A stretch of 64,000 nucleotides of DNA, taken from NCBI RefSeq assembly GCF_016433145.1, contig NC_058130.1, positions 378,118,292 to 378,182,291 of the forward strand, in the 5' to 3' direction. The notes beneath the pieces were generated by a model. It did no database searches. It was given only the letters and a program-made list of their open reading frames with translations, and was not told the DNA's origin. A program made the position numbers and the translations under genes. The stretch is from Gracilinanus agilis. Its lineage: Eukaryota. Below, in pieces: positions 34,940 through 53,290 of the stretch. Position 1 is the first letter of the stretch. Every line of letters begins with the position of its first letter.

Positions 34940-37080
34940 CAGATAACATCTTTTTTATTATTATAAATCTGTTTGTTGCTTTCATTAAAATTCCCAAGTA
35001 TCTCCCTCTCCTCAAACTAGAGAAGGTATTGCTTGACCAAAAAAAATGTATATATAAACTGTCTCATTTTTGTTCATTATTTCTTTCAAAGGAGGTGAAC
35101 ATTCACAAGTAGTTATTCAAACCTTAATTCTGTAGCTACATATAATGTTCTCTGTATTGAGAATGTGATGAGTATTTTACTTTTCATAATTTCATGTGGG
35201 TCTTTCCATGTTTTTTAAAAAATCAACCTGCCTATCATTTGTTACTGCATAGTAATATTTCATTACAACCACAACTTGTTCAGCCATTTCCCAATTGATG
35301 GACAGTCCCTCAATTTTCTAGTTCTTTGCCATCACAAAAGAGCTGCTACAAATGTTTTAGAACATATGGGTTCTTTTCCTTTCTCCCTGATCAGATTGGT
35401 ACAGACCCAAAGTGATAATGCTGAGTCTAAAGCTATATACAGTTTTATAATTCTCTGAGCATATTTCAGATTTCTCTCCAAAATGGTTGAATTCATTCAA
35501 AGTTCTAATAACAGTGTGTTAGTGTCCCCATTTTTCCACATCCTCTCCAAAATTATCATTTTAGCCAATCTGATAGGTAGGAAATGATATCTCAGAATTG
35601 TTTGATTTGCATTTCTCTAATCAGTAATTATTTGGAGCATTTTTTTCATATGTCTATATGTGGCTTTGATTTCTTTGCCCAAAAACTGTTCATATCTTTT
35701 GACCATTCATCAACTGGAGAATGGGCCCTATTCTTATAAATTTGATCAGCTTCTCTACAAATTTTAGAAATAAGACTTGTCCAGAAAATGGTCCGTATAT
35801 TTTTTAAAATTTCTTTCTTTCCTTCTAATCTTGGCTACATTACTTTTATATGTACAAACCCTTTTGGATTTATTGTAATTAAAATTATCTATTTTATATT
35901 TCATGATGCTCTCTATCTCTTGTTTATTCATAAATTCCTCTCCTATCCATAAATCTGACAGGTAATATGTTCCTTATTCTTCTAATTTGCTTATGTCTCC
36001 CTTTATGTTTAAGACATGTATCCATTTTGATCTTATCTTACTAAATTGTTTTGTTTTTGTTTTTGTTTTTGTTTTTTAAACCCTTGTACTTTGGTGTATT
36101 GTCTCATAGGTGGAAGAGTGGTAAGGGTGGGCAATGGGGGTCAAGTGACTTGCCCAGGGTCATACAGCTGGGAAGTGGCTGAGGCCGGGTTTGAACCTAG
36201 GACCTCCTGTCTCTAGGCCTGACTCTCACTCCACTGAGCTACCCAGCTGCCCCCTATCTTACTAAATTATGTAAGATATTGGTCTATATCTATTTTCTGC
36301 CAAACTGCTTTCTAATTTTCCTAACAATTTTTACCATTTGGTGATTTCTTATCCCAAAAGCTTGGATTCATAGTTTTGTTAAATTCAAGTTTATCATAAT
36401 CTTTTACTAGTCTTTGTTGTACTACTGTTGTCTTTCACATTTCTATTTCTTAGCTACAAGATAGTTTTGATAATTACTGCTTAATAATATAGTTTAAAAT
36501 CTGGAACTGATAGACCTTCTTACTGTGCATTTTTTCATCTATTCCTTTCATATTCTTGACCTCCTGTTCTTTCAAATTAATTTTGTTATTATTTTTCTAG
36601 TTCAATAAAATTATTTTTGGTAATTTAATTGGGGTAGCATTAAGTAAGTTTAATTTAGGTAGGACTGACTTTGTCCCCCTATAAGCAATTAATATTTCTC
36701 CAATTATTTAAATATGATTTATTTGTGTACGTAGTGTTTTGTAATTACATTCATGTAGCATCTGGGTTTGTTTTGACATTTTCTCACAGGCCTGTGGTTA
36801 TTTTAAATGAGGTTTCTCTTTCTGTCTCTTCTTGCAATCTTTCTTAGTGACATATAGAATGATAATGATTTGTGTAGGTTTATTTTACATCCTGCTACTT
36901 TTCTGAAATTATTGATAATTTCAACTAACTTTTTTAGTTGAATGTATAGGATTTTCCATGTATGCCATCACATCATTTGCCCATTCTGATTTCTTCAACT
37001 TCTTTTTCTTATCTTATTGCTACTGCTAGCATTTCTAATACAGTGCATAATAATATTAGTGATGATGGGCATCCTTGTAG
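34940..37080 (-). mobile_element. Old L1 ORF2 3' half, fragmented
   Basis: AGCCATTTCCCAATTGATGGACAGTCCC, TTCTTCCAAATTAATTTTGTTATTATTTTTCTAG, GATGATGGGCATCCTTG L1 ORF2 complements. Confidence 0.8.
36048..36254 (-). mobile_element. Young SINE1_Mdo-type SINE nested in L1
   Basis: 14-bp TSD TATCTTACTAAATT at 36034-36047 and 36255-36268. Confidence 0.93.
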
Positions 37081-37189
37081 GTAGATACTTCTTTTCATTT
37101 TAAGAAAAAAATCCATTTACATCTGTGCTTTCCTGTGTTTTTTTTTAAATAAATTTCTTTATCTTTTAAGGAAGTATGCGAAAATCAAG

Positions 37190-37395
37190 AAGTCAGTATG
37201 GCATTGTGGGAAGAGTACTGCACATGGAGTCTAAAGACCTGATTTCAAATCCTGACTCAGACACTTTCCTATCACCCAGAGCAAATTGCTTAACTCTCTG
37301 AATCTCATTTTATCCATCTGTAAAATATAAGAATTAGATTTTAGATTTGATGACTTCTAATGTTGCTTTTAGATCTAAAACCATGATCCTATGAG
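37190..37395 (+). mobile_element. MIR3-type SINE
   Basis: GGCATTGTGGGAAGAG head, CORE, GATGACTTCTAA...TCTAAAACCATGATCCTATGA tail. Confidence 0.7.
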
Positions 37396-38419
37396 CTAAA
37401 TTAATGTCTTTTGTTGTAGAATCCAGAAGAGAACAAAACTTGTAAAAAAAAATCAAGCCATCAATCTAAAAAAATCAAAAAGCTTTTTCTCCTTAATTTA
37501 CTATTTGGCATAGATAACAATGAGGTTATCCTCATTATCTTGGTGTGTAAGCAAATCTGTGAAAGGTCCCATTGAACTATTCAATTAGGGAAAATGGACT
37601 TAAGTTTCATAAATAGGGCTTGGAAAATAGGGACAGTTGGATTTGCATGTAATCTAGCTCCACCTAGAGTACAGTGAATAACAGTGAATAAATAATCTGA
37701 TCTCTTTAATAAAATCAGTGGTCTGGGATCATTTTCCACAGGGACAAAAAGGCTTCTGGAACTTGCTTTTATTATATAAAATTATTATTTGTCCCAAAGT
37801 TGGCCATACTTTGTGGAGGAAATGAGCAGAAAAGCTATTTACTACAAGTCCAGGGCTAGAATGTCTTTCTTGAAGTAAAAGTAATGTATCCAATATTCAT
37901 ATTTACCCAAAATATAAATTAGTACTCATTTATTTATGACAAGATTCATTATTTTACAAAATCTTATCAGGAAAGATTCCTTTAAATTAAAATTTCATGC
38001 AGTTCTAGATGAATTGAATGTCCTTTAAAGTATTAAAAGGGCCAATATAAATGATCTAGGGACTTGAATATAACTTTAATGGGATAAAAAATGCTATGGT
38101 GTGAAAATCTCTCCAAATGCAGGTGAACATCTTCTCCACAATTTATAGATCCCTGAAATGTTAAATAACTTGCCTATGGTCACACAAACAATATGTGACA
38201 GAGGCAAGACTTGAAATCATATTTCTGACTCCCAGAGAAGTTCTGACTATGTCTTGCTGCCTCTGACTTGATTTTGAAAAACTTTAATATTTAGTGGAGT
38301 ATAATGAAGAGTACAGTAATGTCGATAAGCATTAATGTGAGACTGCTGTAATGTTAATCACTGTGCTCAGCACTGAAAATGCAAAAAGGGAGTGGATAAT
38401 CCTGTTTTCATGGATTTCC

Positions 38420-41400
38420 CATTTTTTTAATCATATGTTTTCATCTGTATTTATACTCTGACAGTTCTTTCTCTAGAGGTGAATAGCATTCCTTTTCATA
38501 AATCCCTCAGAATTATCTTGGATCATTGCAATGCTATTGATCATTCCACAATATTTAAGTTACCCTTCTATTTTTTAACCAGTACCAGATTTTTTTTTAT
38601 TATTATTGCTTTTTAGTACAGTTTAAGATCTGGTACTCCTAAGCCATCATACATCACTTTTTTTTTCCATGAGTTCCCTTGACTTTTTGTTCTTCCAGAT
38701 GATTTTTGTTATTATTTTTCTAGTCCAATAAAATAGTTTTTTGATAGGTATAGCACTAATTAACTAAATTAATTTAATTACAATAGCTCAGCCTACCCAT
38801 GAGTATGCGTAATTAATATTTTTTCCAATTGTTTAGATATAATTTTATTTGGGTGAAAAGTATTTTATAATTGTGTTCATATAATACCTGCATTTGTCTT
38901 GGAAAATAAACTACCAAATATTTTATATTATCAAGAGTGATTTTAAATGAAATTTCTTTTTCCAACTTTTGCTGCTTTGTTGGAAATATGTAGAAATGCC
39001 AATGTTTTCTGTGGGTTTATATGTATCCGGCAATTTTGTTAAAGTTGCTAATTATTTCAACTAGATTTTGAGTTGATTTTCTAGAATTCTCTATGTATAC
39101 CATCATATCATCCGCAAAGAATGATAGTTTACTTTCCTTATTGTCTATTTTAATTCCTTCAATTTCTTTTTCTTCTCAATTGCTTCCATTAACATTTCTA
39201 GTACAATATTAAATAATAATGATGATAATGGGCATCCTTGCTTCACTCCTGATCTTATGGAGAAGGCTTCTAATTTATCCCCATTGCAGATGATACTTGC
39301 TGATAGTTTTAAATAAATACTGATTATTTTAAGAAAAGGCCCTTTTATTCCATTGCTTTCTAATATTTTCAATAGGAAAGGGTGCTATAATTTGTCAAAG
39401 ACTCATTCTTCATCTATTGAAAAGATTATGTGATTTCTGTTAGTTTGATTATTGATATGGTCAATTATGCTGATAGTTTTCCTAATATTAAACCAGCTTT
39501 GCATTCATGGTATAAATTCTACCTACTCATAGTGAATAATCCTTGTGATATATTGCTGTGGTCTCTGCTAGATTTTTATTCAAGATGTTTACATCAATAT
39601 CCATTAAGGGAATTAAGTCTGTAATTTTCTTTCTCTGTTTTTGGTCTTCCTGGCTTATGTAGCAGCACCATTTTGTGTCATAAAAAAGAATTTGGTAGGA
39701 CTCCTTCTTTGTTTATTTTGCTAAATAGTTTATATAGTATTGGGATTAATTGTTCTTTAAATGTTTGATAGAATTCACTTGTGAATCCTTCTGGACCTGG
39801 CAGTTTTTTCTTTGGGAGTTCATGGATGATTTGTTCAATTTACTTTTAAGAGATAACATTATTTTAGGATTCTATTTCCTCTTTTGTTAATATAGGCAAT
39901 TCATATTTTTGTAAATATTCATCCATTTCTCCTACATTATCAGATTTATTGTCATATAATTGGACAAAATAGATCCTAATAATTGTTTTATTTTCCTCTC
40001 ATTAGAAATGAAATCACCCTTCCCATTTTTGATACTGGTAAATTGATCCTCTTCTTTCTTGTTTTTAATCAAATTAACCAATACTATATTTTATTTGAGT
40101 TTTTTCAGAAAACCAGTTCCTAGTCTTATTTATTAGCTCAATAGTTCTTTTAATTTCAATTTTATTAATTTCTCCTTTGATTTTTAGGATTTTCAATTGT
40201 CTTTAACTGGGGTTTTTAAATTTGTTCTTTTTCTAGTTTTTTTCATTGCATGCCCAATTCAATGATCTGCTTTTTCTCTATTTTATTGATATAAGCACTC
40301 AGACATATAAAATTTCCCCTGAGTACTACTTTGTTTGTATACCATACATTTTTTTTTAAACCCTTGTACTTCGGTGTATTGTCTCATAGGTGGAAGAGTG
40401 GTAAGGGTGGGCAATGGGGGTCAAGTGACTTGCCCAGGGTCACACAGCTGGGAAGTGGCTGAGGCCGGGTTTGAACCTAGGACCTCCTGTCTCTAGGCCT
40501 GACTCTCACTCCACTGAGCTACCAAGCTGCCCCCATACCATACATTTTGATATGTTGTCTTCTCATTGGCATTACCTTCTATGAAATCAGTGATTGTTTC
40601 TATGATTTGTTCTTTGACACATCAGTTTTGAAGAATTAGATTATTTAGTTTCCAATTAATTTTTAATTTGCCTCTTCATGAGCCCTTATTAATAATAATT
40701 TTATTACATTATGATCTGAAAAAGTTGTGTTTATTATTTCTGCTTTTCTGTATTTGCTTGTGAAATTTTTATGCCCTGGTGCATGGTAAATTTTTGTACC
40801 AGATGTTGCTGAAAAGAAAGTATATTCCTTTTTAACCCTATTCAATTTTCTCCACACCTCTATTAAATCTAACTTTTCTACACTTTCATTCACTTCCCTT
40901 ATGGCTTTCTTATTTATTTTTTTTGTTAGATTTATCTAGCTCTGATAGGAGAAGTTTGAGGTCCCCCACTAATATAGTTTTACTATCTATTTCCTCCTTA
41001 AGTTCCTTTAGTTTATCCTTTAAAAATTTGGATACTATGCCATTTGGTACGTATATGTTAAATACTGATATTTCTTCATTGTCTACACTGCCTTTTACAA
41101 AGATAAAATTACCTTCCTTATATCTTTTAATCATATTTATTTTTGATTTAGCTTTCTCTGAGAACATGATTGTTACTCCTGCTTTTTTGTCTCAATTGAA
41201 GCCCAATAGTTTCTGTTCCAACCTCTTACTTTTACTCTGTGCATCCACCTGCCCCAAATGTGTTTTTTTTTAAATGAACGGTAAGATTCAGGTTTTTAAG
41301 GCACTCTTCTCTCCACTTCCATTTTATGGGTGAGTTCATTCCATTTACATTCACATTTATGATTACCATCTGTGTCTTCTCCTCCATCTTAATTTTCTCT

Positions 41401-41991
41401 TTTAATCATGCCCTTTCTCCTTTCACTTTTTCAGTGTTTTGCTTTTAATCACTCCCCCCACTCTCTCTTATATTACTCCTTTCCCCAATACCCCTTTTCT
41501 TATTCCCCTTCTATAGGGTAAGATAAGATTCTATGCTACAATGAATCTGGCTGATCTTCCCTCTCTGAGCCAATTCCACTGAGAATGAGGTTTTAGTATT
41601 ACCTGTCACTACCCTCATTCTGCCTTCCAATGTAATAGTATCTCTGCCACCCACACACCTCATTAACAGCTCTTTATGTGATATAATTTACCCCATTTTA
41701 CTTCTCTCTTCCCATTTCTCTTGGTACAATCCTCTTTTTCACCCCTAGTTTTTTGTTTTTTACATATCATCCTAAAGAGTTTACTACCATATCCTCTGTC
41801 TATGTATACTTCTACTACTATGATAATTATAACAATTTTTAAGAGTTACAGATATCATCTTTCCATATAGGAATGTAAACAATTTGACCTTATTGGAGCT
41901 CTTAAATTTTTTCTCTTTCTTATTTACCTTTTTATGCTTCACTTGAATTTTGTATTTGAACATCAGATTTTCTATTTATGCCTTGATTTTT
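38420..41991 (-). mobile_element. L1, 3' portion (inter-ORF spacer, ORF2 endonuclease/RT with deletions, 3' UTR remnant); host of the ERV
   Basis: ORFs 40910-41167 (GNFIFVKGSVDNEEISVFNIYVPN), 40663-40893 (LDLIEVWR...EYTFFS...FSDHN), 39145-39372 (GDKLEAFSIRSGVKQGCPLSSLLFNIVLE). Confidence 0.92.
40353..40534 (-). mobile_element. Young SINE1_Mdo-type SINE nested in L1 ORF2
   Basis: 14-bp TSD ATACCATACATTTT at 40339-40352 and 40535-40548. Confidence 0.93.
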
Positions 41992-42481
41992 ATCAATAAT
42001 ATCATTAGCTTTAATTAGTTAAGGACTTCCTGTTCCCTTTCTCCCAACCATTATCCTGCTTCTCCTTCCCTAAGTCTATTAATAATAAATAATCTTAAAC
42101 TTACATCTGACTTGAGCTTCATCAAGAATCCTAGGGTCTCCAGTGAATCATATCCTGGGATAATTTGATGGAAGAGGAGTATTACATCTTGCAGAAACAG
42201 TGATCAATCTGCAGGCAATCTCAAGCATTATCCAAAGGCACAGGGCTTCAGTTGAGAATAAATAACTGTACAATTCTAACAACAGATTTCTTGCTTAGCT
42301 GGTAGCCCTGTGATACTGTTATCATCTAGAGTTTGGGATTAGCAGATTCAACATATTCAGACAACATCTACTGCAGTGGGTGATCCTTTTGGGTTCACTA
42401 TCATATCTTAAGTGTCTCACATAGGATTCAATACCCATAATTAACCCTGCTCCAGATTCACATTACAACCCTGTCATAACA
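41990..42481 (+). mobile_element. Truncated LTR (last ~490 bp), inverted relative to the ERV body
   Basis: Is the reverse complement of 50652-51141 (roughly 92-94% by eye); ends exactly at the LTR terminal ...ATAACA. Confidence 0.92.
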
Positions 42482-43823
42482 ACCTGAAAACATCAAGATT
42501 ATCATTTTTCTAAGTTGAACTCTACACTATGCTATACTAAGTCTCTTACCTCACTATCTACAATTCCCCCCAAAATAATAAAATTCTTAACAATGCCATT
42601 TCCTAAGCTCTCTATTCTTCCTATGCTAATGGTAAGGAGTAGGAAAGTTTTAACTGGGAAAGAATTTGGGTTTGAATACATATGGTGAACAGAATTTGAA
42701 CATGCTTATACAGTCAACAATGCAAGTTTGTAACACAAAATATAGTAACCTTTAAACTTTGTAACTTTTCCTTAACTGGCTCTATAACTATGCATAAATA
42801 CAAATAAACTATGTTAAGAAGACTACTGTCAATACATAACTGCAATTAAATATCTACATTAACACAACAGTTTTCTAACAATCTTAAATTCCTATGCTAT
42901 CTATACTATTATTAGTCCTTTTCCATACATTAGTAAATTTCTATCCTAAGTTAGAGTATTAATCCATTAGTAACATAACTACCTAAGTTCATAATATTTC
43001 TCATGACTAAACCTTATTAGCATATGTACAAGCCTATTTAATTAAACTTATAACCATAATTTTCTGTCCCTATGCTACCTTCCTATAAAAATCCCTGATT
43101 ATTCTGTCCCTAGGATTAGTAGAACTTATTATGGGTTAGTTTCAAATATAATACATATATACAAGGTTTTATGTGAAGTTTTAACAAAGAGAGTAAATCT
43201 AGCACTATTAACCAGATCAAGGAACACATTTTCTCCTTTGCCGTGGTTAAAGTACCTTTTTACTCTAACTATATATAACATATATACAAATATGTACATG
43301 TGAAGTAATTTAAGTGTTTATGTGTTGGACATATGACCTATCATGTCTTGTATTGTTTCATACTCACCTCTTAATTCTCCTGCCAATCAGCCATGGACTG
43401 TTGCATGCATTCTACAGTATGGATGCAATGACTTTATGACATGATTGTTATATGAGTATGTTAACCTTCTACAATTCAAATTTAATCTTCCACAGTTGGT
43501 CATGATATTGTTCTACTTCTGTGGTGATGTCATCCAAGTCACACAGATGTTCACAGTTCAGTTCTCTTTGTGTAGTCTGCATTGCCCTTTGCGATGTCCC
43601 ATGACATCCAGGTGTCTTCAAGCCTTCATCTGTACTGCTTTCACTATTTTGACTGGTGTCTAATTTGACTGAAGAGCTTGTCACCTTCGTTTATCTGGAA
43701 CTGTCATTTGTGTGATTGTGTTGAATTGTGTTTAAAAAAAATTGTGTGTTGCCACAAAGTTTTTTTTTTTTTGAAAAGTTGTCATAAATACGGCTTTATT
43801 ATTTCACTTGCTTCTTTAATCAT

Positions 43824-45110
43824 TTACTCATCGGTATCACTACTTTGGTCTAATGCAATTTGATCTTTTGACTGCTGTTCTTCTATGGCTGGGTCTTGTT
43901 GCTGAGGCAATTCTTTGGATGACTTGACATGAATGACATGGCACCATGGGTCTCTGTTTTTTACTTTGACTGCTGTAGGGGGTATCAAAATAATTTTGTA
44001 AGGTCCATGCCACTTGGGTTCCATGATTGATTTTCTATTAAAATTTCTGACATACACTGTGTCTCCTGATTTATAATTATGCAAGCTAAAATCAAATGGA
44101 ACTCTCTGCTGGATTAAGCCTAATCTGTGTAACTCATCTAGCCTTTCTTTCAACAGCTTGATATATTCATATGGTTTGTATTCCACTCCCAGATGTATTA
44201 AATAATCTGTCTCTTGAGGTGCCATGCCATGCCAGGGCAGTTGACCATATAGTAACTCAAAAGGTGATAAGTGAGGAATACTATTTAGTTGACTCCTGAT
44301 ATGAAACAATGCCATTAGTAAAAGATCTGGCCATTTTAGGTGTGTTTTAGCACAGAGTTTTCCAATCAGATTTTTGAGCTGTTTGTTCATTTTTTCAATC
44401 TGGCCCTATGACTGAAGATGATAGATTGCATATATATGTCTTTTTTATCCCTAAAACTGCATAAATGCTCTTTAAAATGGCATTAGCAAAGTGACTTCCC
44501 GAATCTAACAAAATAATTGCAGGGATTGAGAATCTTGGTATAATTTCTCTCAGTAGGATCTTGACTACAAAAGCTGCATTATTACATCTGGCCAGGAACA
44601 CTTCTGACCATTTGGTTAATTTGTCCACAATCACTAAGGCATATCTGTACCCTTGGCATCTTGGCATGGTGATGTAATCAATTTGCTAGTTGTTTCCCTC
44701 CAAGGCTTTTGACTTTGGTAATGCCTTAGTTGAATTGCATGCAAATCTTGCACCTCTGACACACTCTCATAGCTGTTGTAGTTATTCTTCTGGCTATCCA
44801 GTGCTTTTTAATGGAATCCACTAGGGCTAAAGTCCCATAATTACCTTTCTCATGCAAAGTATTACATAACATGTAGAACAATGATTTTGGCAAAAATGGT
44901 TTATCAAAAGCTGATATCCAAACTCAATTCACTAGATTTGTTCCAAATGTTCTTTCTAGTACTTCACTGTGGAGAATATGCATTTTGTAATTGAGTTTCA
45001 TCCACTAAAGATAAGTTCAGTACTTAAAGTGGTCCAAATCTAGCTCCAAATTTTACAGTGATGTCAGCCCTATGGTTGCCTAACTGCACTGTTCCTAACA
45101 ATCTTTGATA
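43824..45110 (-). pseudogene. pol: ERV integrase (decayed)
   Basis: HW...CQRCKIC zinc-binding remnant, YALVIVDKLTKW-EVF, IIPRF-IP-I--DSGSHF, MNKQLK, GPY/F domain (PKWHGPYKIIL-P-TAVKV...WCHVIHVK). Confidence 0.92.
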
Positions 45111-47050
45111 ACCTTTGCAATGAATTACAGAGAATTTTGCTGGTAATTGAATTCTTGCAAGAGATCACTTATTAAATGTCCATATGCAATTGCTTTTCCA
45201 TTTGACGTTATGAATCTGAGGTTTCTCCAGATTTCTCCTGAACAATGAACTACTCCAAACACATATTTTGAGTTTATGAAGATGTTAACCCATTTATTTT
45301 CTGCAATTTGAAGTGCTCTCACAAATACTAGGAGTTCTGTGCCTTGTGCACTTATTTTTTTGTGGCAGTGCAGAATACCACAAGGTGTCAGTCTGTGTAA
45401 CTACTGCAGCCCTGCTGTAGCGTCTTCCATTCACCATGTAGGATGAACCATCGGTATGAAGGTTCATATCGGCATCAACTAGGGGAACATCTGATGAATC
45501 CTTCCTAGTCTTCTGCACAACCTGCAAGGTGTCATTGCAATTATGAATATTTTCACCCTTTAATAGAAAATCTGGTAGTAGAGTAGCTGGATTGATGTTT
45601 TTGCACTAGTGGAATGACACATTCTCATTTGCTAGTAATACTGCTTGATATTGAGAATGTCTTTGTGATGTGAAAGTTTGCAGATTGGTATTCCTCAATG
45701 TTGTTTGTATTTGGTGTTGGGAATATAATCTGGGCTCTCTTTCCAATATCAGCTTTGAGGACTTTCGAAACATAATAGCTACTGTAGCCACAGTTTTTAG
45801 ACAACTGGACATTCTGCGGATCACCTGGGTCTAAGTTGTAACTATAGAAAGCAATTGGTCTTAAGTTATCCCCTAGAGTTTGCATTAGCACACCATAAGC
45901 AATCCCTTTGTCTTCATGGATGAATAGGTGGAATGGTTTTTCGTGATTTGGGATGCCTAAGGCTGGTGATGACATGATTGCAGCCTTGAGTTTCTCTATA
46001 GTGTGCTTGTGTTCTCTGTTGAGCTTCAACAGTTCTGTGACGTTCTTGGTTAACTCTGTTAGTGGTTTCACAATTAGAGAATAACCAGGTATCCACTGTC
46101 TACAGAAACTCATCATGCCTATGATTGCTCTTAGTTTTTTCTTTGTTTTAGGCAAGCTCAACTTTTAAATGTCTGCATTTCTCATTTGGGAAATTTTCCT
46201 GGTGTCCTTTTCTAGTATGAATCCTAAGTATTCTACTTTCTTTTTAATCCTCTGCAATTTTGTTTTGAACACTTTGTGACCTCTTTTGCATAGTTCTTTT
46301 AATAGATGCACACTGCCTCTCTGGCATATAGAAGCTGATGGTGACATTAGCAAGATGTCATCTGCATAATGTACCATTTTTCTCTCAGTAAAGGTAATTG
46401 ATTCTAGATCCTTTTGCAAGATTTGGCAAAATATTGAAGCGGAATTCGCGAAACCTTGGGGAATTCTTGTCCATAGGATTGATTTTCCCTCCCAGGTGAA
46501 GGTGAACAGCTTCTAGCTGTCTCTATGCATGGGTATGGAAAAGTATGTAGAGCTGAGATCAATGACAGTGAACCAGCTAGCTGTATCTGGTATCTCTGCA
46601 ACAATTCATAATGGACTGGGTACTACTGCATGTGTCTTCTTTACATAGTTGTTGACAGCCTTAAGATCTTGAACCATTCTCCACTGAGTTCTCCCTTCAG
46701 AGTACAGTTTTGCTTTTTTAATTGGCATAATGGGAGTATTGAACTCTGAGAAGCCATAGACAAGTATGCCTTGATCCAGGAGACTTTGGATGATCAGTCT
46801 TACACCCTCTACTGCTTCTTTGCTCAGTTTGAATTGAGGTGGTGTGCCTCCTTTGATTTTTATTTTTACAGGATCAGCAGACAGGATTCTTCCAACTTCT
46901 GTTGAGTTTTTAGCCCAGATTTCATTTGGGATATATCTGGAATCTCATATGTGTTGTTCTCTTGTTTGTATTCAGATTCCTCTTCTAGTTGACCTAAAAA
47001 CAATATTGGGTGATGTTTCAGAGATCTTTTTGGCAAGTGTAGATAAATCT
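45111..47050 (-). pseudogene. pol: ERV reverse transcriptase, connection and RNase H (decayed)
   Basis: SEFNTPIMPIKK...WRMVQDLKAVN, HYADDILL, VEYLGFIL, LRAIIGMMSFCRQWIPGY, LHTDGSSYMVNG, NIFINSKYVFGVVH. Confidence 0.93.
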
Positions 47051-47780
47051 TTCCACTAGGATCACATTGAATAGTGGCAGCTAATTTGCATAAAAGATCT
47101 CTCCCAGTGAGGTTGGTGTTATATTGAATCTCTGGGAGCTAGGAGTTCACTGTTGATTGACAGGTGAATCAGTTGGATGTTGAATGTTCCCAGAGATGCA
47201 TGCGGACATAGAAGAGGGCAGTTGAGAACCCTGGGAGAGGTTCTGGGGTCTTTACGTGTCCCTGAGGCTGGAGTTCAAGTGGATCCTGGTCTTTGGGGAA
47301 ATTCAGACTTGCAAACTGAACCCTGCAAGCTCCTCCTGTGTTTTCTGTATCATCATCAACCTGTATCAGACCACCATCTCTGTTTCTACTGCCCCTAGAT
47401 ATTAGGAAGTCCATCATCTTAGTCATCTAGATTTCCCAGGGCCCGGGAGGGATCTGGGAAGTGGGTAGGAGAAGAAGAAGAGGGTGGATAAAAGGGTGAA
47501 TATCTCAACCGATTAGGCTTAAGATCTACTGAAGAAGAAGCTGAAGATTTCACATTGAATGGACAGGATGGCATTAACAAAAATGAGTGATTGAGGGAAA
47601 GTGGGCCCAGCTTTATCATCTTTGCTTTAAATTTTGGAACAGACTGAGATAATCCTGAAGCACCATGGAACCTCAAATTGCCTTCATATTTGCATCGTGC
47701 TGGGATTTCCTATAAAAGATGTCCCCGTATCTAACATCACGTCATAAATATTTTCCCCAATTTTGATTGAAATTAGGGGT
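47050..47780 (-). pseudogene. pro: ERV aspartic protease (split by nested LTR)
   Basis: KPLISIKIG...VMLDTG (DTG at 47723-47731), HSFLLMPSCP-NLTGRDLLCKL. Confidence 0.9.
47117..47554. mobile_element. Nested solo LTR (438 bp) inside the ERV protease
   Basis: TG...CA termini, 4-bp TSD TTGG/TTGA; removing it plus one TSD restores in-frame CPFNLTGRDLLCKL. Confidence 0.88.
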
Positions 47781-49200
47781 TTATTTTGTTTATTGGATTT
47801 TACTGGAACAAGCAGCATCTGTGATTCCTTCAAAGACAACATGTCTTTAGGTGTAATCCAGTCCTGCATATGGTTTTCTTGCCTTAGCAGTCCATCATCC
47901 CTGTTGTCATCACTCAGTAATAATTCAGAAATCTCTTTTTGATTTTCTGAAATCATGTCTTTAGCAGCACACTGATGGAGTATTTCATACAGGGGCTGAC
48001 AGCATTCCCCTGCCCCTCTCACAGGATTCTGAGTTGTCATGGATACTCTGCCAGAGTTCACGGAGTGTTCAGAAGCTAGCACCTTTATCTTAGGGAGAAT
48101 AAGGCTTTGATTTGTGATTTCAGTTAACTTATCAGTTGTTGTCTCAAAGTCTGTAGAAGTAGAAATTTTTCCTTTGGCAGCTTCTGGATTTGGTATATGG
48201 TTAGAGTTTTCGCCATCCACTGCCTCGGGTTTAAGTTTTCTTGTCTCTAAGACTTGATGAATCATACTCTCCAGTTTACGCTTCTGTGGAGTTCCAGGCA
48301 ACTCACTGGAAACCTCTTTGTGTGAGTTAACCTTGTTAACTCTGCTGATTAACTCACTAGATTTTTGTTTGATCATGTCTATGTCCTTCATCCCACAACC
48401 CTTAGGTGTATATTCCTTTGCTTGTGGATTTAAACTTGAAACTAGATATCTTTCTGGTCTATATTTGTTCTTATATAACCCTGCTTCAAGATGAAGGAAT
48501 ACAGAGTTCCCATTAAATCCTGGAGGCTTTCCTCTTCTGCACTTTGAATACTATTTTCATTTACTGCATCTGAATGGGGTACTCTATTTTTTATGGGACA
48601 CAGCTTCATCTCTTGGGTTATATGTGTTGCTAGTGTGTTAACACAATGTAAATCCCTTTCACATTCTTTATCCAAGACTTCTTTTTGATCACAGCTTGGA
48701 ATAAAGTTATGAAGCTGTGGTTTCTGACCCATCAAACTGGATTGTAATGCTTCATCCTTTTGCAAACAATTACTAATCCTTCCTATGAAGTCCATTTGTT
48801 GCATATCCAAACCACCTTGTTAGGAATATGCTAACTAACTTTCTTCAAGCTCATTGCTTGATATCCCAGATACAACTTTCCTCATTTGTAAGATGTCTTG
48901 CCACTCCTCATTTTTTGCAGCAGTCTGATCACTACCCCTTGTAAATTCATTTATATTGTTGCCCAGCCTATTCAGTGTGCTGTCTTTGCCCTCTGCCTTA
49001 TTGCAGTCACCCTCTTTGTCTCAAATAAACTTCCATCGAATCCAATGTAGGAGACTGGCTAGATTTCCTCCATTTATGATCACAACATCTATCATGAGAC
49101 TTATCATCCTCATGATGCCCTGACATGATTGACCACTTGGAATTGTAATATGTCTTCTTGTTGTTATCACATTGCTCATTGCTATAAGACTTATTAAAAT
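47781..49200 (-). pseudogene. Uncharacterised Gag-Pro extension (~470-495 codons, hydrophilic, contains PAM2-like motif)
   Basis: ORFs 48442-48810 and 47684-48391 plus largely open frame 48841-49020; the last segment is in frame with protease. Confidence 0.65.
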
Positions 49201-50596
49201 TAATCTGCTTTTTATATTTATGAAATTTAACTATGTGGCCTCAAAGTCCACACAGATAGCATGTCTTTCCAACAATATCATTGCCTTTGTTATTATAGCC
49301 TCCTGATTGCTAGACTGACTTTGTCCCCTACTGGCTTGTAGTGCCAAGTTCTTAATCTCTTCATGCTCTTTCTCCTTTTTTGCATCCTTAAGCTATCTCT
49401 TTAAATCTGCAGTCAATGTAGCTTTCTCAGACTCAGATTCTCTAGCTGCTCTTTGTTCTTTCACCCAAAAGTCATGAATGTAACTAGCATGTTGTCTAAT
49501 ATCCTCAATGGAGAGAGTTTCCCATTGAGGGCAGTTCTGGCGAAAGTAATGTTGGATTTGCACTGCAGCCCCTTTGACAAATTGCCTACGTATGTGCTCT
49601 AAAGCTTCTGGTGACTGGTTATCCCTGTATCCAAGCAAATTCTCTACCAATTCTACTAGTCTGTCCAAGTATATATTCGGATGTTTGTCTTCTACCTGCC
49701 TCAATTTCTCAAATTTTATCCATGAGTTAAGCCTCTTAGCATATAATTTCATTGCTTCCAACAAATTGGTTTGACACCTCTGTAAATATCTCATATTGGC
49801 ATAAGACGATATCTCCAAGTCTTCATGAACAGTAGGCCAGGATGTCAGGTTTTCATTTGACCTAGTCTCTTCCATGAATTTATTTTTTCAGATGGTGTGT
49901 AAAATTCCCCCAAAAGAAATTCCACATCCTGGAAAGATGGATTGAACAGTTCAAAAGCCCTTTCCAGCTCTTTTATGGACTTATGTGGTGATAGGTAAAA
50001 TTTGGGGAATCTTCTCCTTAAAACTTCTAGGTCATTGACTGTAAATGCTTTATATGACTTCAAATGAACTATCCCTCCTTCCAGTTGAAGGATAGTTCTA
50101 TCCACAATGGGGTACAGAGATACGGTATTTGATTTGTCATCCTTTGCCTCAGTCTTAGTATCTGTAGAATTTGTAGCATCAGTGGCTGTCCCTATTTGGT
50201 TTTTTCTATTACCTCCAATTGCATTATTGTGTGGTTATCAAGTTGTTGACCCTCTCTTATCTTTTTGTTAATTTCTATGAGTTGTTTTATTTGGTCTTTC
50301 AGTGTTTGTATCAGGTCACTATTCTCTTGCTTTGGATGTCCCCACAAATGCTCAACTACTTTCTTCAATGCTCATAGTCCTTAAAAAATCAATATAATAA
50401 TAATTCCCAGAGTAGGCAGGAATGCTAACAATTCTGCCAGGCTAACTGCTAGCCATTTGTAAGAATCACATATCAGTAAGATTTTTAGCAGATAACCTGG
50501 AATAGTTTCGAACCATAATGTGTAAGCACCTTGGGAAATAGTGTATATCATTAGGCAGAGGCTTAATACTATAAAAGTCATTCTTCCCACAGCCAT
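49200..50596 (-). pseudogene. gag: ERV gag (hydrophobic leader, coiled coil, capsid with MHR, NC zinc knuckle)
   Basis: YKAFTVNDL...FNPSFQDVEFLLGEFYTPSEK (class I CA), HPNIYLDRL (MHR-like), CYLCGL*GHIVKFH knuckle at 49220-49261. Confidence 0.88.
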
Positions 50597-50629: not shown

Positions 50630-50651
50630 ATTCCTTTTGCCTCGCAAAAAC
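50630..50651 (-). promoter_or_regulatory. Degenerate primer-binding-site-like sequence
   Basis: Directly after the LTR end: GTTTTTGCGAGGCAAAAGGAATTGAAC, with a TTGAAC TpsiC-loop complement; tRNA species not assignable. Confidence 0.4.
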
Positions 50652-51526
50652 TGTTATTACAAGGTTGTAATGTGGTTCTGGAGCAAGGTTAATTATGGGT
50701 ATTGAATCCTATGTGAGGCACTTAAGATATGATAGTGAACCCAAAAGGATCACCCACTGCAGTAGATATTGTCTGAATATGTTGAATCTGCTAATCCCAA
50801 ACACCAGATGGTAACAGTATCATGGGGCTACCAGCTAAGGAAGAAATCTGCTGTTATAATTGTACAGTTATTTATTCTCAACTGAAGCCCTGTGCCTTTG
50901 GATAACACTTGAGATTGATTGCAGATTGATCACTGTTTCTGCAAGATGTAATATTCCTCTTCCCTTAAATTATCCCAGGATATGTTCTACTAGAGCCCTA
51001 GGACTCTTGATGAAGCTAAAGTCAGATGTAAGTTTAAGATTATTTATTACTAATAGACTTAGGGAAGGAGGAGCAGGATAATGGTTGGGAGAAAGGGAAC
51101 AGGAAGTCCTTAACTAATTAAAGCTAATTATATTATTGATAATCTTTGAAAATACTGTTGATCAGGTTTGATAGATAATAGCCTGATTGTGCCAGACAGA
51201 CCCAAACTAAATCAAGGTTACTCTGCTGAATGAGATGTTGTTCTTCTTCTTGGTAGTGAAATTCAGGAATAGAGATTGATGAAGTAGATTTGTAGTTGGT
51301 TGTTGGTTCATGGTTGAATAAAGCTCACCTGAGGCCTACCCAAACCACCCTTCAACCCACTATCTCATTTCTGAGATCAAGTGGCTTCAAATTCCTGGCT
51401 TTTATACCTGAACCTAACTGCCCTTGGCTTCTGCCAAGCTCCTTCCAGGTTTGGTTCTTTCCGCATTCTAAGCAGGTAATTGTCCATCATCCTGACTTCA
51501 ACATGGCTGTCAAATATATTATTACA
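50652..51526 (-). mobile_element. ERV 5' LTR (875 bp)
   Basis: TGTAATAA...TAATAACA; TATAAAA at 51400-51406; AATAAA at ~51045 and ~50873; adjacent to PBS-like site and gag. Confidence 0.9.
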
Positions 51527-53290
51527 CTATGTATACTTCTGCTACTATGATAATTGTATGAATTTTTAAGAGTTACAGATATCATCTTTACATATAGGAA
51601 TATAAACAATTTGATCTTATTGGAGCTTTTAAATTTTTTCTCTTTCTTATTTACCTTTTTATGCTTCTCTTGAATTTTGTATTTGAACATCAGATTTTCT
51701 CCTTATGCCTAATTTTTTTTTCTTCAGGAACAGTTGAAAATCTTCTATTTTATTAAATGACCATACTCTCCCCTGAAAGAATATAGTCAGTTTTGACAGG
51801 GAGGTGATTCTTGGTTGTTAACCCAGTTCCCTTGCCTTCCAACATATCATATGCTAAGCCTTCCAGTCCTTCAGTGTGGTAGCTGCCAAATCCTATGTAA
51901 TCCAGACTGAGGCTTCATGATATATGAACTGTTTCTTTCTGGCTGTCTGTAATATTTTCTCCTTGGCCTGGGAACTCTTGTACTTGGCTATAACATTCCT
52001 GGGATTTCTCATTTTGGGATTTGTTGTAGGAGGGGATTTGTGGATTCTTTCAATTTCTATTTTACCCTCTTGTTCAAGAATATTAATGAAGTTTTCTTAG
52101 ATAATTTCTTGTAATATGACAGATAGTCTTTTTTTTTTTTGGTCCTGACTTTCAGATAGTCCAATAATACCTAAAATGTCTCTTCTGGATCTATTTTCTA
52201 GGTCACTTTTTTTCAATTAAATATTTCATATTTTCTTATATTTTTTATTCTTTTGTTTTTTCTTATTGTTTATTGATGTCTCATGAAGACACCAGATTCT
52301 GTTTGCTCATTTGTAGTATTTAAAGACTGAATTTCTTCCTTGACCTTTTGATCCTCCTTTTTCATTTGGTCCATTCTACTTTTCATGACACTTTTTTTTT
52401 GCCTCTTTTTCTAGTAGGTTAATTCTGTTTTACAAAAACTTTTTTTCCATTGGATTTTTGTGCCTCTTCTTTCCAGTTCACTAATTATGCCTTTTAAGCC
52501 ATTATTTTCTTTTTTGCATTACTTTCATTTTTTTCCATTTTTCTTCCCATTTTCTTCAACCTGTCTTATTTGATTTTTGAATGCCTTTTCGAATTCTTCT
52601 AGTGCTTGAGACCATTTTCCATTTTTCTTTGAAGTTTTGCATGCAGTTACTTAGATCTCACCGTCCCCTGTTGGTTCTGTGCTTTGCTTTTTGCCCTAAA
52701 GATTTTAGAAATCTTTAAGGGTTAAATGTTTCTTTTTGCTATTTGCTCATTTTCCCAATCTTTTTTTTCTGCCTGTGAACTGGAAATTCTGAAAGCTGCT
52801 TGCTGATTGTGTTTCCTTTGCAGCTGGCTTATAGGGATTGCTACTGTGAGCTATTTTACCCTGAGGGTAGGTCTTCAGCACAGCAAAGCAAGTTTGAAAG
52901 GGGCCACCGCTATGGACTTCTGGGCTTCATAGTGGGCTAGTATCAGAGTCTGGGACTTCAAGGGGTGGGTCTGAGGTGCTCTTTTGTTGGGGTAGCCACA
53001 TCCAGGATCTCAAAGTTAGCCTATGGCCATCATAGAACCTGATGCAGTAGGTGGAAGGTGGTCAGCCAGCACTACTCTGTGTGCAGTTTTGCTTCTGATT
53101 CCCCCTTATCCCATAAAAATCAACTGCCTTGGCCTATATTTCAAGTTGTATTCTGAGGGAGACCTCTCTCAATCTGTCTTGTTGTTGGTTTTTGACTCCT
53201 ATAATTTTGAGGTGCTTTTTAAAGATTGGTTAGGAAGGATTTTCAGAGCAGTTTCAGCCTTTGCTGCTACTAAGCCATCATTTTGGCTCC
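51527..53290 (-). mobile_element. L1 5' portion (5' UTR, ORF1, start of spacer), continuation of 38420-41991
   Basis: ORF1 complement (same family as 415-699); 5' end GGAGCCAAAATGATGGC at ~53290. Confidence 0.88.

Follow-up and report, generated by a model that had tools for sequence, protein, structure and literature searches.

A candidate PAM2 motif behind the gag UGA stop in a clade of class I endogenous retroviruses of Gracilinanus agilis

Introduction

PAM2 motifs occur in hydrophilic regions of host proteins such as PAIP1, PAIP2, eRF3, Ataxin-2, PAN3 and Tob and share a common contact spacing, in which positions 3, 4, 5, 7, 10 and 12 touch the MLLE domain, whereas 6 and 8 lie exposed and position 11 is free (PMC2854688). 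According to the same source the Phe at position 10 is invariant and matters more than any other residue, position 7 is an 'invariant' Ala, and eRF3, PAN3 and Tob compete for the same site on MLLE. The PAM2w motifs of LARP4 and LARP4B demonstrate that the position 10 pocket also accepts Trp (PMC7356810), whereas the substitute in the endogenous retrovirus (ERV) described here is Tyr, a residue for which no binding data at position 10 were found in the literature searched. The motif described here furthermore differs from the host motifs in being ERV-encoded, in carrying this Tyr10 in one sub-clade and in having Thr7 in some lineages.

Viral ligands of the PABP1 MLLE domain have been described in the Hendra and Nipah virus P/V/C proteins and in the N proteins of HCoV-229E and Berne virus, with measured affinities and one crystallised complex (PMC10132805). 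These RNA viruses are however exogenous and carry the motif in proteins made in abundance, whereas the ERV motif would reside in a minor precursor dependent on stop suppression, has been followed through many lineages and is a putative binder. No retroviral or ERV PAM2 was found in the literature searched, the scope of which mostly excludes subscription papers, and the available text of a review on retroviral read-through mentions PAM2 only for eRF3 (PMC13517186). The initial annotation of this DNA knew of no such motif in class I mammalian retroviruses, and the literature searched agrees with this, but among viruses at large PAM2 mimicry is already known (PMC10132805). Both the motif and the viral strategy were therefore familiar; the setting is new, and the form with Tyr is a variant.

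The Moloney MLV reverse transcriptase (RT), which reportedly binds eRF1, as Orlova is said to have found in 2003, would be a case in which a read-through product of a retrovirus affects termination; its target and mechanism are different, and it bears on the present motif only if the read-through feedback considered below applies. With respect to gene order, SSSV, a zebrafish ERV and a cane toad ERV, which are related to the epsilonretroviruses, likewise have a Gag ending in UGA followed by pro-pol in frame (PMC13517186), but in a comparison by description only, section 4.1.2 of that review leaves a long PAM2-bearing spacer unmentioned for them. In a survey of dasyurid ERVs some class I clades furthermore fall between the gamma and the epsilon viruses, and PAM2 and readthrough do not occur in the available portion of its text (PMC11334065).

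The element and its relatives

The window, i.e. the whole stretch of 64,000 nucleotides of Gracilinanus agilis DNA that was analysed, contains a decayed minus-strand provirus with LTR, gag remnants, spacer, protease, RT, RNase H and integrase end, the features of which are the following:

50651..51530, minus strand, 5' LTR of about 880 nt, with many dispersed copies in the genome
49020..50400, minus strand, decayed gag, with a capsid containing an MHR-like stretch and a zinc-knuckle remnant near 49261
49010..49019, minus strand, site where pairwise alignments reveal about 55 nt missing from the window copy
48551..49010, minus strand, remaining part of the spacer between gag and protease, interrupted by stops and frame breaks in the window copy
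47684..48550, minus strand, stop-to-stop open frame of 288 codons, comprising hydrophilic spacer with the motif and then the first half of the protease
48401..48439, minus strand, PAM2-type motif in its Tyr variant, positions 1-12 corresponding to 48439-48404
45294..46944, minus strand, RT (YADD), connection and RNase H, decayed and spread over several frames
43824..44405, minus strand, C-terminal part of the integrase (MLVIN_C, class I type; E 1.8e-16)
42482..43823, minus strand, AT-rich 3' region without an env frame
41990..42481, plus strand, partial 3' LTR covering LTR positions 389-879, in the opposite orientation to the 5' LTR

The capsid and its MHR-like stretch were recognised by eye and are presumed to be such, and no Gag match to Pfam was obtained in the gag region of the window. 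The approximately 55 nt lacking from the window copy are present in five of five close relatives and include the gag-terminal UGA, and since further breaks are found in addition to this loss at the gag junction, the window copy is dead and no motif-bearing protein is made from it. No env frame exists between the integrase and the 3' LTR piece, and env families were likewise unmatched in the scanned frames of six out of ten downstream stretches from relatives, namely those with an integrase match, the other four having no such match and being uninformative in this respect.

The best matches of the RT in the PDB are of MLV/XMRV type (E 1e-16), those of foamy type reaching E 1e-9, and an RT nearest to the gamma/epsilon type, an MLV-type integrase end and a pro-pol in the gag frame behind a stop codon together place the element among the class I ERVs. 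In a protein tree of 46 RT rows, the 17 rows from this genome constitute one clade (100/100) that is sister to an opossum family (100/99) and lies outside the PERV-B group, the deeper nodes being weak. This sister group is the Monodelphis domestica Gag-Pol family (UniRef K7E2C3 and A0A5F8GG34), which is 54% identical over PR-RT, and of its cluster of 44 members the 15 listed have their start at the protease or close to it, so that the spacer region is not covered by them. A gammaretrovirus proper was also considered; it would group with MLV and PERV, have a UAG stop followed by a pseudoknot, a short junction between NC and protease, and env. The present element instead lies outside the clade with PERV-B and has a UGA, a long spacer, no stable local fold and no env, and is accordingly not one.

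Protein searches with the spacer for relatives elsewhere came out empty (851 and 8,000 candidates), and a profile search gave 315 matches, of which the 150 listed are almost all to protease only, while a few close fragments on short contigs (P0001, P0002 and P0054) stop short of the motif. Neither were related loci found in metagenomes and viral contigs, and a degenerate pattern of the motif retrieved 53 metagenomic stretches, none of them ERV-like. A search of sequencing runs listed no RNA run that contains it. A spacer-bearing copy was thus not found outside this genome, but the collections hold few marsupial ERV frames and absence elsewhere is not implied.

The motif in the window copy

The minus strand of 48401-48439 reads SSLNPQAKEYTPK, and the motif residues are Leu3, Asn4, Pro5, Ala7, Glu9, Tyr10 (codon TAT) and Pro12. 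The peptide accordingly conforms to PAM2 at five positions (a hydrophobic residue at position 3, Asn or Ser at 4, Pro or Val at 5, Ala at 7 and Pro at 12) and departs from it at position 10, where Tyr is found instead of Phe. Counted along the 288-codon frame, the Leu of the motif has number 40, the first Met number 54 and the DTG of the protease (47731-47723, minus strand) number 274, with a stop codon just past the first half of the protease, and the motif is thus indeed in frame with the protease and upstream of the start of a 235-aa open reading frame, as initially described. An identity of 8 out of 13 positions with Ataxin-2 is likewise reproduced with the Ataxin-2 peptide as it was written there, and the surroundings of the motif are hydrophilic as stated. 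Disorder-promoting residues make up 65% of the frame before the protease compared to 54% in the PR-RT of a relative, a comparison of composition only.

PAM2 (PF07145) is the sole Pfam family matched by the window frame, and together with the MLV-type RT and integrase matches this agrees with the original designation of a PAM2-type motif in a class I ERV. A Pfam scan had also been proposed as a check; no other family is matched, and the 13.8 bits obtained (E 0.048) fall under the gathering cut-off of 20 bits. No other Pfam domain and no ESM Atlas match was found for the spacer. The PAM2 pattern of the literature, widened to accept Tyr or Trp at position 10, arose in 28 of 200,000 shuffles of the window frame, and over six frames 0.077 occurrences are expected per shuffled window (1,213 shuffles), where one is observed. 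The single match in the window is therefore suggestive but not decisive, and it is conservation that decides.

Conservation of the motif

A DNA search for close copies returned 45 matches at 30 loci, and all 29 copies covering the motif, which include the window and two near-duplicate pairs, have Tyr at position 10, encoded as TAT. The private decay from Phe to Tyr in the window copy that the initial annotation implied must therefore be given up, the more so as Tyr also runs along several successive branches. Constraint was evaluated on 27 rows, after two duplicates and one locus without the region had been dropped; Leu3 and Tyr10 are invariant in all 27, but so are 6 of 199 other columns. Synonymous and non-synonymous pair fractions are 0.25 and 0.17 at the key positions as opposed to 0.08 and 0.44 elsewhere, while the ten-codon motif window ranks only 14 of 200. 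Tyr is consequently the state of a sub-clade, in which the constraint on the motif is moderate.

More distant relatives were found with a protein search that gave 136 matches, many of them 22-34% identical and beginning right at the motif, and in most of 40 distant copies fetched the canonical form, with Phe, precedes the protease site by about 215-240 codons. Because this first protein query contained the motif, the test was repeated with RT alone, taking the 40 best-ranked chromosome-placed matches of 150 listed and leaving out the window, 11 matches already fetched and unplaced contigs. Among these RT-selected relatives the motif is present in 30 of 40 in a loose form and in 26 of 40 in a strict form, where shuffles lead one to expect 0.05 and 0.03, and of the ten without it six hold a decayed homologue, two align only beside the motif site and two are unaligned. 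Every major branch of a DNA tree with 66 rows carries the motif; the Tyr forms occupy successive branches around the window copy and Phe forms are found beyond these and elsewhere, an arrangement that, with midpoint rooting, implies no direction of change. The motif is on the other hand absent from all 25 other retroviral-type proteins having at least 150 residues before the protease. The dead state of the window copy and the 0.077 matches expected per shuffled window would in themselves be compatible with a chance match in a decaying provirus, but the occurrence in 30 of 40 RT-selected relatives against 0.05 expected, together with its presence on every major branch, rules this out and leaves it a negligible probability.

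About one third of the 40 relatives belong to one young subfamily, and one row was therefore taken per sublineage, giving 17 rows chosen by eye from the 30 motif carriers. Across these sublineages Leu3 is kept in 17/17 (using all six codons), Asn4 in 16/17, Pro5 in 17/17 and Pro12 in 16/17, position 10 is Phe in 14 and Tyr in 3, and position 7 is Ala in 13, while the variable positions 2, 6, 8 and 11 take 11, 7, 9 and 6 states, respectively. Conservation across family copies, which the initial annotation had named as a check, is hence found both in the RT-selected set and at the contact positions, and by comparison of residues the sublineage pattern matches the published MLLE contact map. It should also be mentioned that two observations run counter to an MLLE reading, namely the Thr that replaces the 'invariant' Ala7 in 4/17 sublineages and the retention of Glu9 in just 8/17. 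An alignment of 30 copies sharing the motif-protease frame was reduced by clustering to 11 lineages of 14-53% identity, and among its 252 ten-residue spacer windows the motif scores highest with 0.65, the next scoring 0.36 and the mean being 0.20, but this set was selected on the motif and the 0.65 is thereby inflated. The Pfam PAM2 cut-off is passed by 2 of 16 relatives (20.4 and 28.1 bits), the other 14 remaining below.

These patterns indicate that the motif is a real feature kept by selection at the protein level across lineages. It is conceivable, but in our judgement very unlikely, that the residues have converged on the PAM2 pattern while being kept as a protease cleavage site, as some other motif or as a nucleic acid signal, without any binding to MLLE; the Pfam scores mostly below cut-off and the deviations at Ala7 and Glu9 in several lineages speak for this notion. 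The six positions however fit the MLLE contact spacing exactly, and a DNA or RNA signal is ruled out by the codon variety, comprising all six Leu codons as well as several Pro and Ala/Thr codons. A cleavage site is furthermore made improbable by the motif having an aromatic residue followed by x-Pro and not the aromatic-Pro bond that is typical of retroviral cleavage sites.

Position after the gag stop codon

Among 107 loci, 52 gag ends are recognisable and 46 of these are TGA (36 directly and 10 one codon later), the end of gag lying about 80-95 codons past the zinc knuckle and the base after the TGA being A wherever it was counted (36 of 36). At a distance of 164-205 codons downstream of the gag TGA comes the motif, in the same frame in all seven copies checked, five of which are stop-free over this distance, and in 10 of 16 relatives' frames scanned an RVP match shares the open frame with the motif; the zinc knuckle and the protease are separated by roughly 500 codons. 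The placement of the motif inside a Gag-Pro polyprotein by the initial annotation is accordingly correct with respect to the protease frame, but the motif lies after the gag UGA and a location in Gag proper is ruled out. Since it is found post-UGA in the gag frame, the motif would be confined to a read-through Gag-Pro-Pol, and read-through is, as we infer from the frames, the simplest route to a motif-bearing product.

In gag stops preceded by A, e.g. those of L061, L088 and L126, an ATG overlaps the stop and opens a mini-frame of 2-8 codons in 10/10 copies, and re-initiation at this ATG is ruled out by these short frames. The contexts UGAAGA and UGAAGU both occur at the gag stop in this family, as is also reported for SSSV and the fish and frog ERVs (PMC13517186). 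A stem-loop directly 3' of the UGA was found in none of ten copies (z -0.5 to +1.4) in folds of 100 nt, the scope of which is local structure as distinct from pseudoknots and long-range pairings. The gag itself extends about 90 residues beyond its single zinc knuckle (window about 49020-49260 and relatives), and this tail has a recurring Cys/His cluster and a conserved final stretch before the stop.

It may be suggested that the motif acts in a feedback on read-through, in which it displaces eRF3 from PABPC, weakens termination at the gag UGA and thereby promotes its own synthesis, as a PABP-side analogue of MLV RT binding eRF1. The occurrence of the motif only in the post-UGA frame is consistent with such a role, as is the lack of local RNA structure 3' of the UGA in 10/10 copies, unlike the gammaretroviral pseudoknot (PMC13517186), and PABP is described as stimulating termination via the PAM2 of eRF3 (PMC5027505). 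A minor product would however hardly out-compete abundant PABPC in trans, and effects of PABPC1 are expected to be minimal where a long coding sequence follows the stop (PMC13517186), and we therefore regard this feedback as unlikely.

Possible function in MLLE binding

Judged from its conserved positions, the motif has very probably been selected for binding to MLLE, and the peptide is probably a selected PAM2 mimic common to this whole clade of env-less class I ERVs. That the Tyr form still binds MLLE also seems fairly likely to us, whereas the more specific proposal that PABPC is the target and that the effect is exerted in cis on RNA stability or packaging is one on which we are evenly divided. 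Under this proposal, the Gag-Pro-Pol precursor would be tethered by its PAM2 mimic to PABPC on its own RNA, which would keep Pol together with its own genome, and the tethered motif may displace eRF3, PAN3 and Tob from PABPC, such that an RNA with many kilobases after the first stop would be protected and its packaging favoured. Since the Gag-Pro-Pol precursor is minor and PABPC is abundant, action in cis is more plausible than a global competition. Sequence cannot, however, separate PABPC from UBR5 as target, nor cis from trans action.

In a predicted complex the window peptide scores 0.34 with a PABPC-type MLLE domain of this genome as compared to 0.01 for the best control, with contacts agreeing to at least 83% between runs and a pLDDT of 55-56 for the partner. 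Of the solved pairs 51 of 78 attain the score mark, as do 2 of the 108 mismatched ones, but a score of 0.60 or under belongs to only 5 of the 78 solved pairs and to every one of the 4 mismatches that pass; for peptides and for host-virus pairs the mark is uncalibrated. The predicted complex is consequently weak evidence and may express likeness only, probably to solved PAM2-MLLE complexes.

UBR5, which is reported to contain an MLLE domain, or a germline PABP could alternatively be the target. The genome holds 22 MLLE matches, one of them an intronless PABP, and an element without env would have to copy itself in germ cells, which makes a germline PABP conceivable. Nothing in the present data points to UBR5 in particular, however, and in a pull-down from cells with a viral PAM2 peptide PABP1 and PABP4 were recovered (PMC10132805), and a target of this kind appears decidedly improbable. 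As regards PABPC and action in cis, one may also combine this with the read-through feedback, so that the PAM2 of the read-through product would replace the gammaretroviral RNA read-through signal, evict eRF3 and deadenylase adaptors from PABP and, by feedback in cis, couple Pol synthesis, RNA survival and packaging, with Tyr being a working third aromatic; in its entirety this combination is doubtful.

If MLLE is indeed bound, then within the limits of our searches retroviruses and ERVs would here have their first PAM2 mimic, suggesting that these retroviruses hijacked mRNA control. The natural series of substitutions over many lineages would in addition map the tolerance of MLLE, as for Tyr10, Thr7 and Asp4, and a motif that is only found post-UGA would allow a direct test of PABP/eRF3 control over retroviral stop suppression and would also probe the survival of an RNA with a very long 3' tail and the packaging of Pol in cis without env.

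Further observations on the element and its family

The 5' LTR is matched by 40 out of 40 scored candidates (811 candidates in the genome), and the two LTR pieces of the window element are 93.7% identical (6.3% difference). A direct repeat of 192 nt and 93% identity, which we take to resemble LINE-1, stands on both sides of the whole insertion (41800-42481 and 50651-51717 regions). With the 3' LTR partial and inverted, this is no ordinary footprint of integration, and a later rearrangement or a template switch is possible. Several dispersed short repeat families (D1-D5, D8 and D11) are found at 700-59600 of the window; these are presumably SINEs, and pieces near 36500-41300 we take to be LINE-like. 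The catalytic motif of the RT is YADD in the window copy (46165-46512) and YVDD in a young relative.

The family is large, a search with one RT piece giving 5,851 first-look candidates, and its tree is ladder-like with a young subfamily of low divergence, as is expected of intracellular retrotransposition. The intronless PABP of this genome (L143, C7:11606383-11609580) has RRMs and an intact MLLE in an open frame of 945 codons. Finally, one copy of the element (L135, C2:337371203-337375835) carries the PAM2 motif twice in a single frame, at a distance of 134 codons, and scores 28.1 bits for PAM2 in Pfam.
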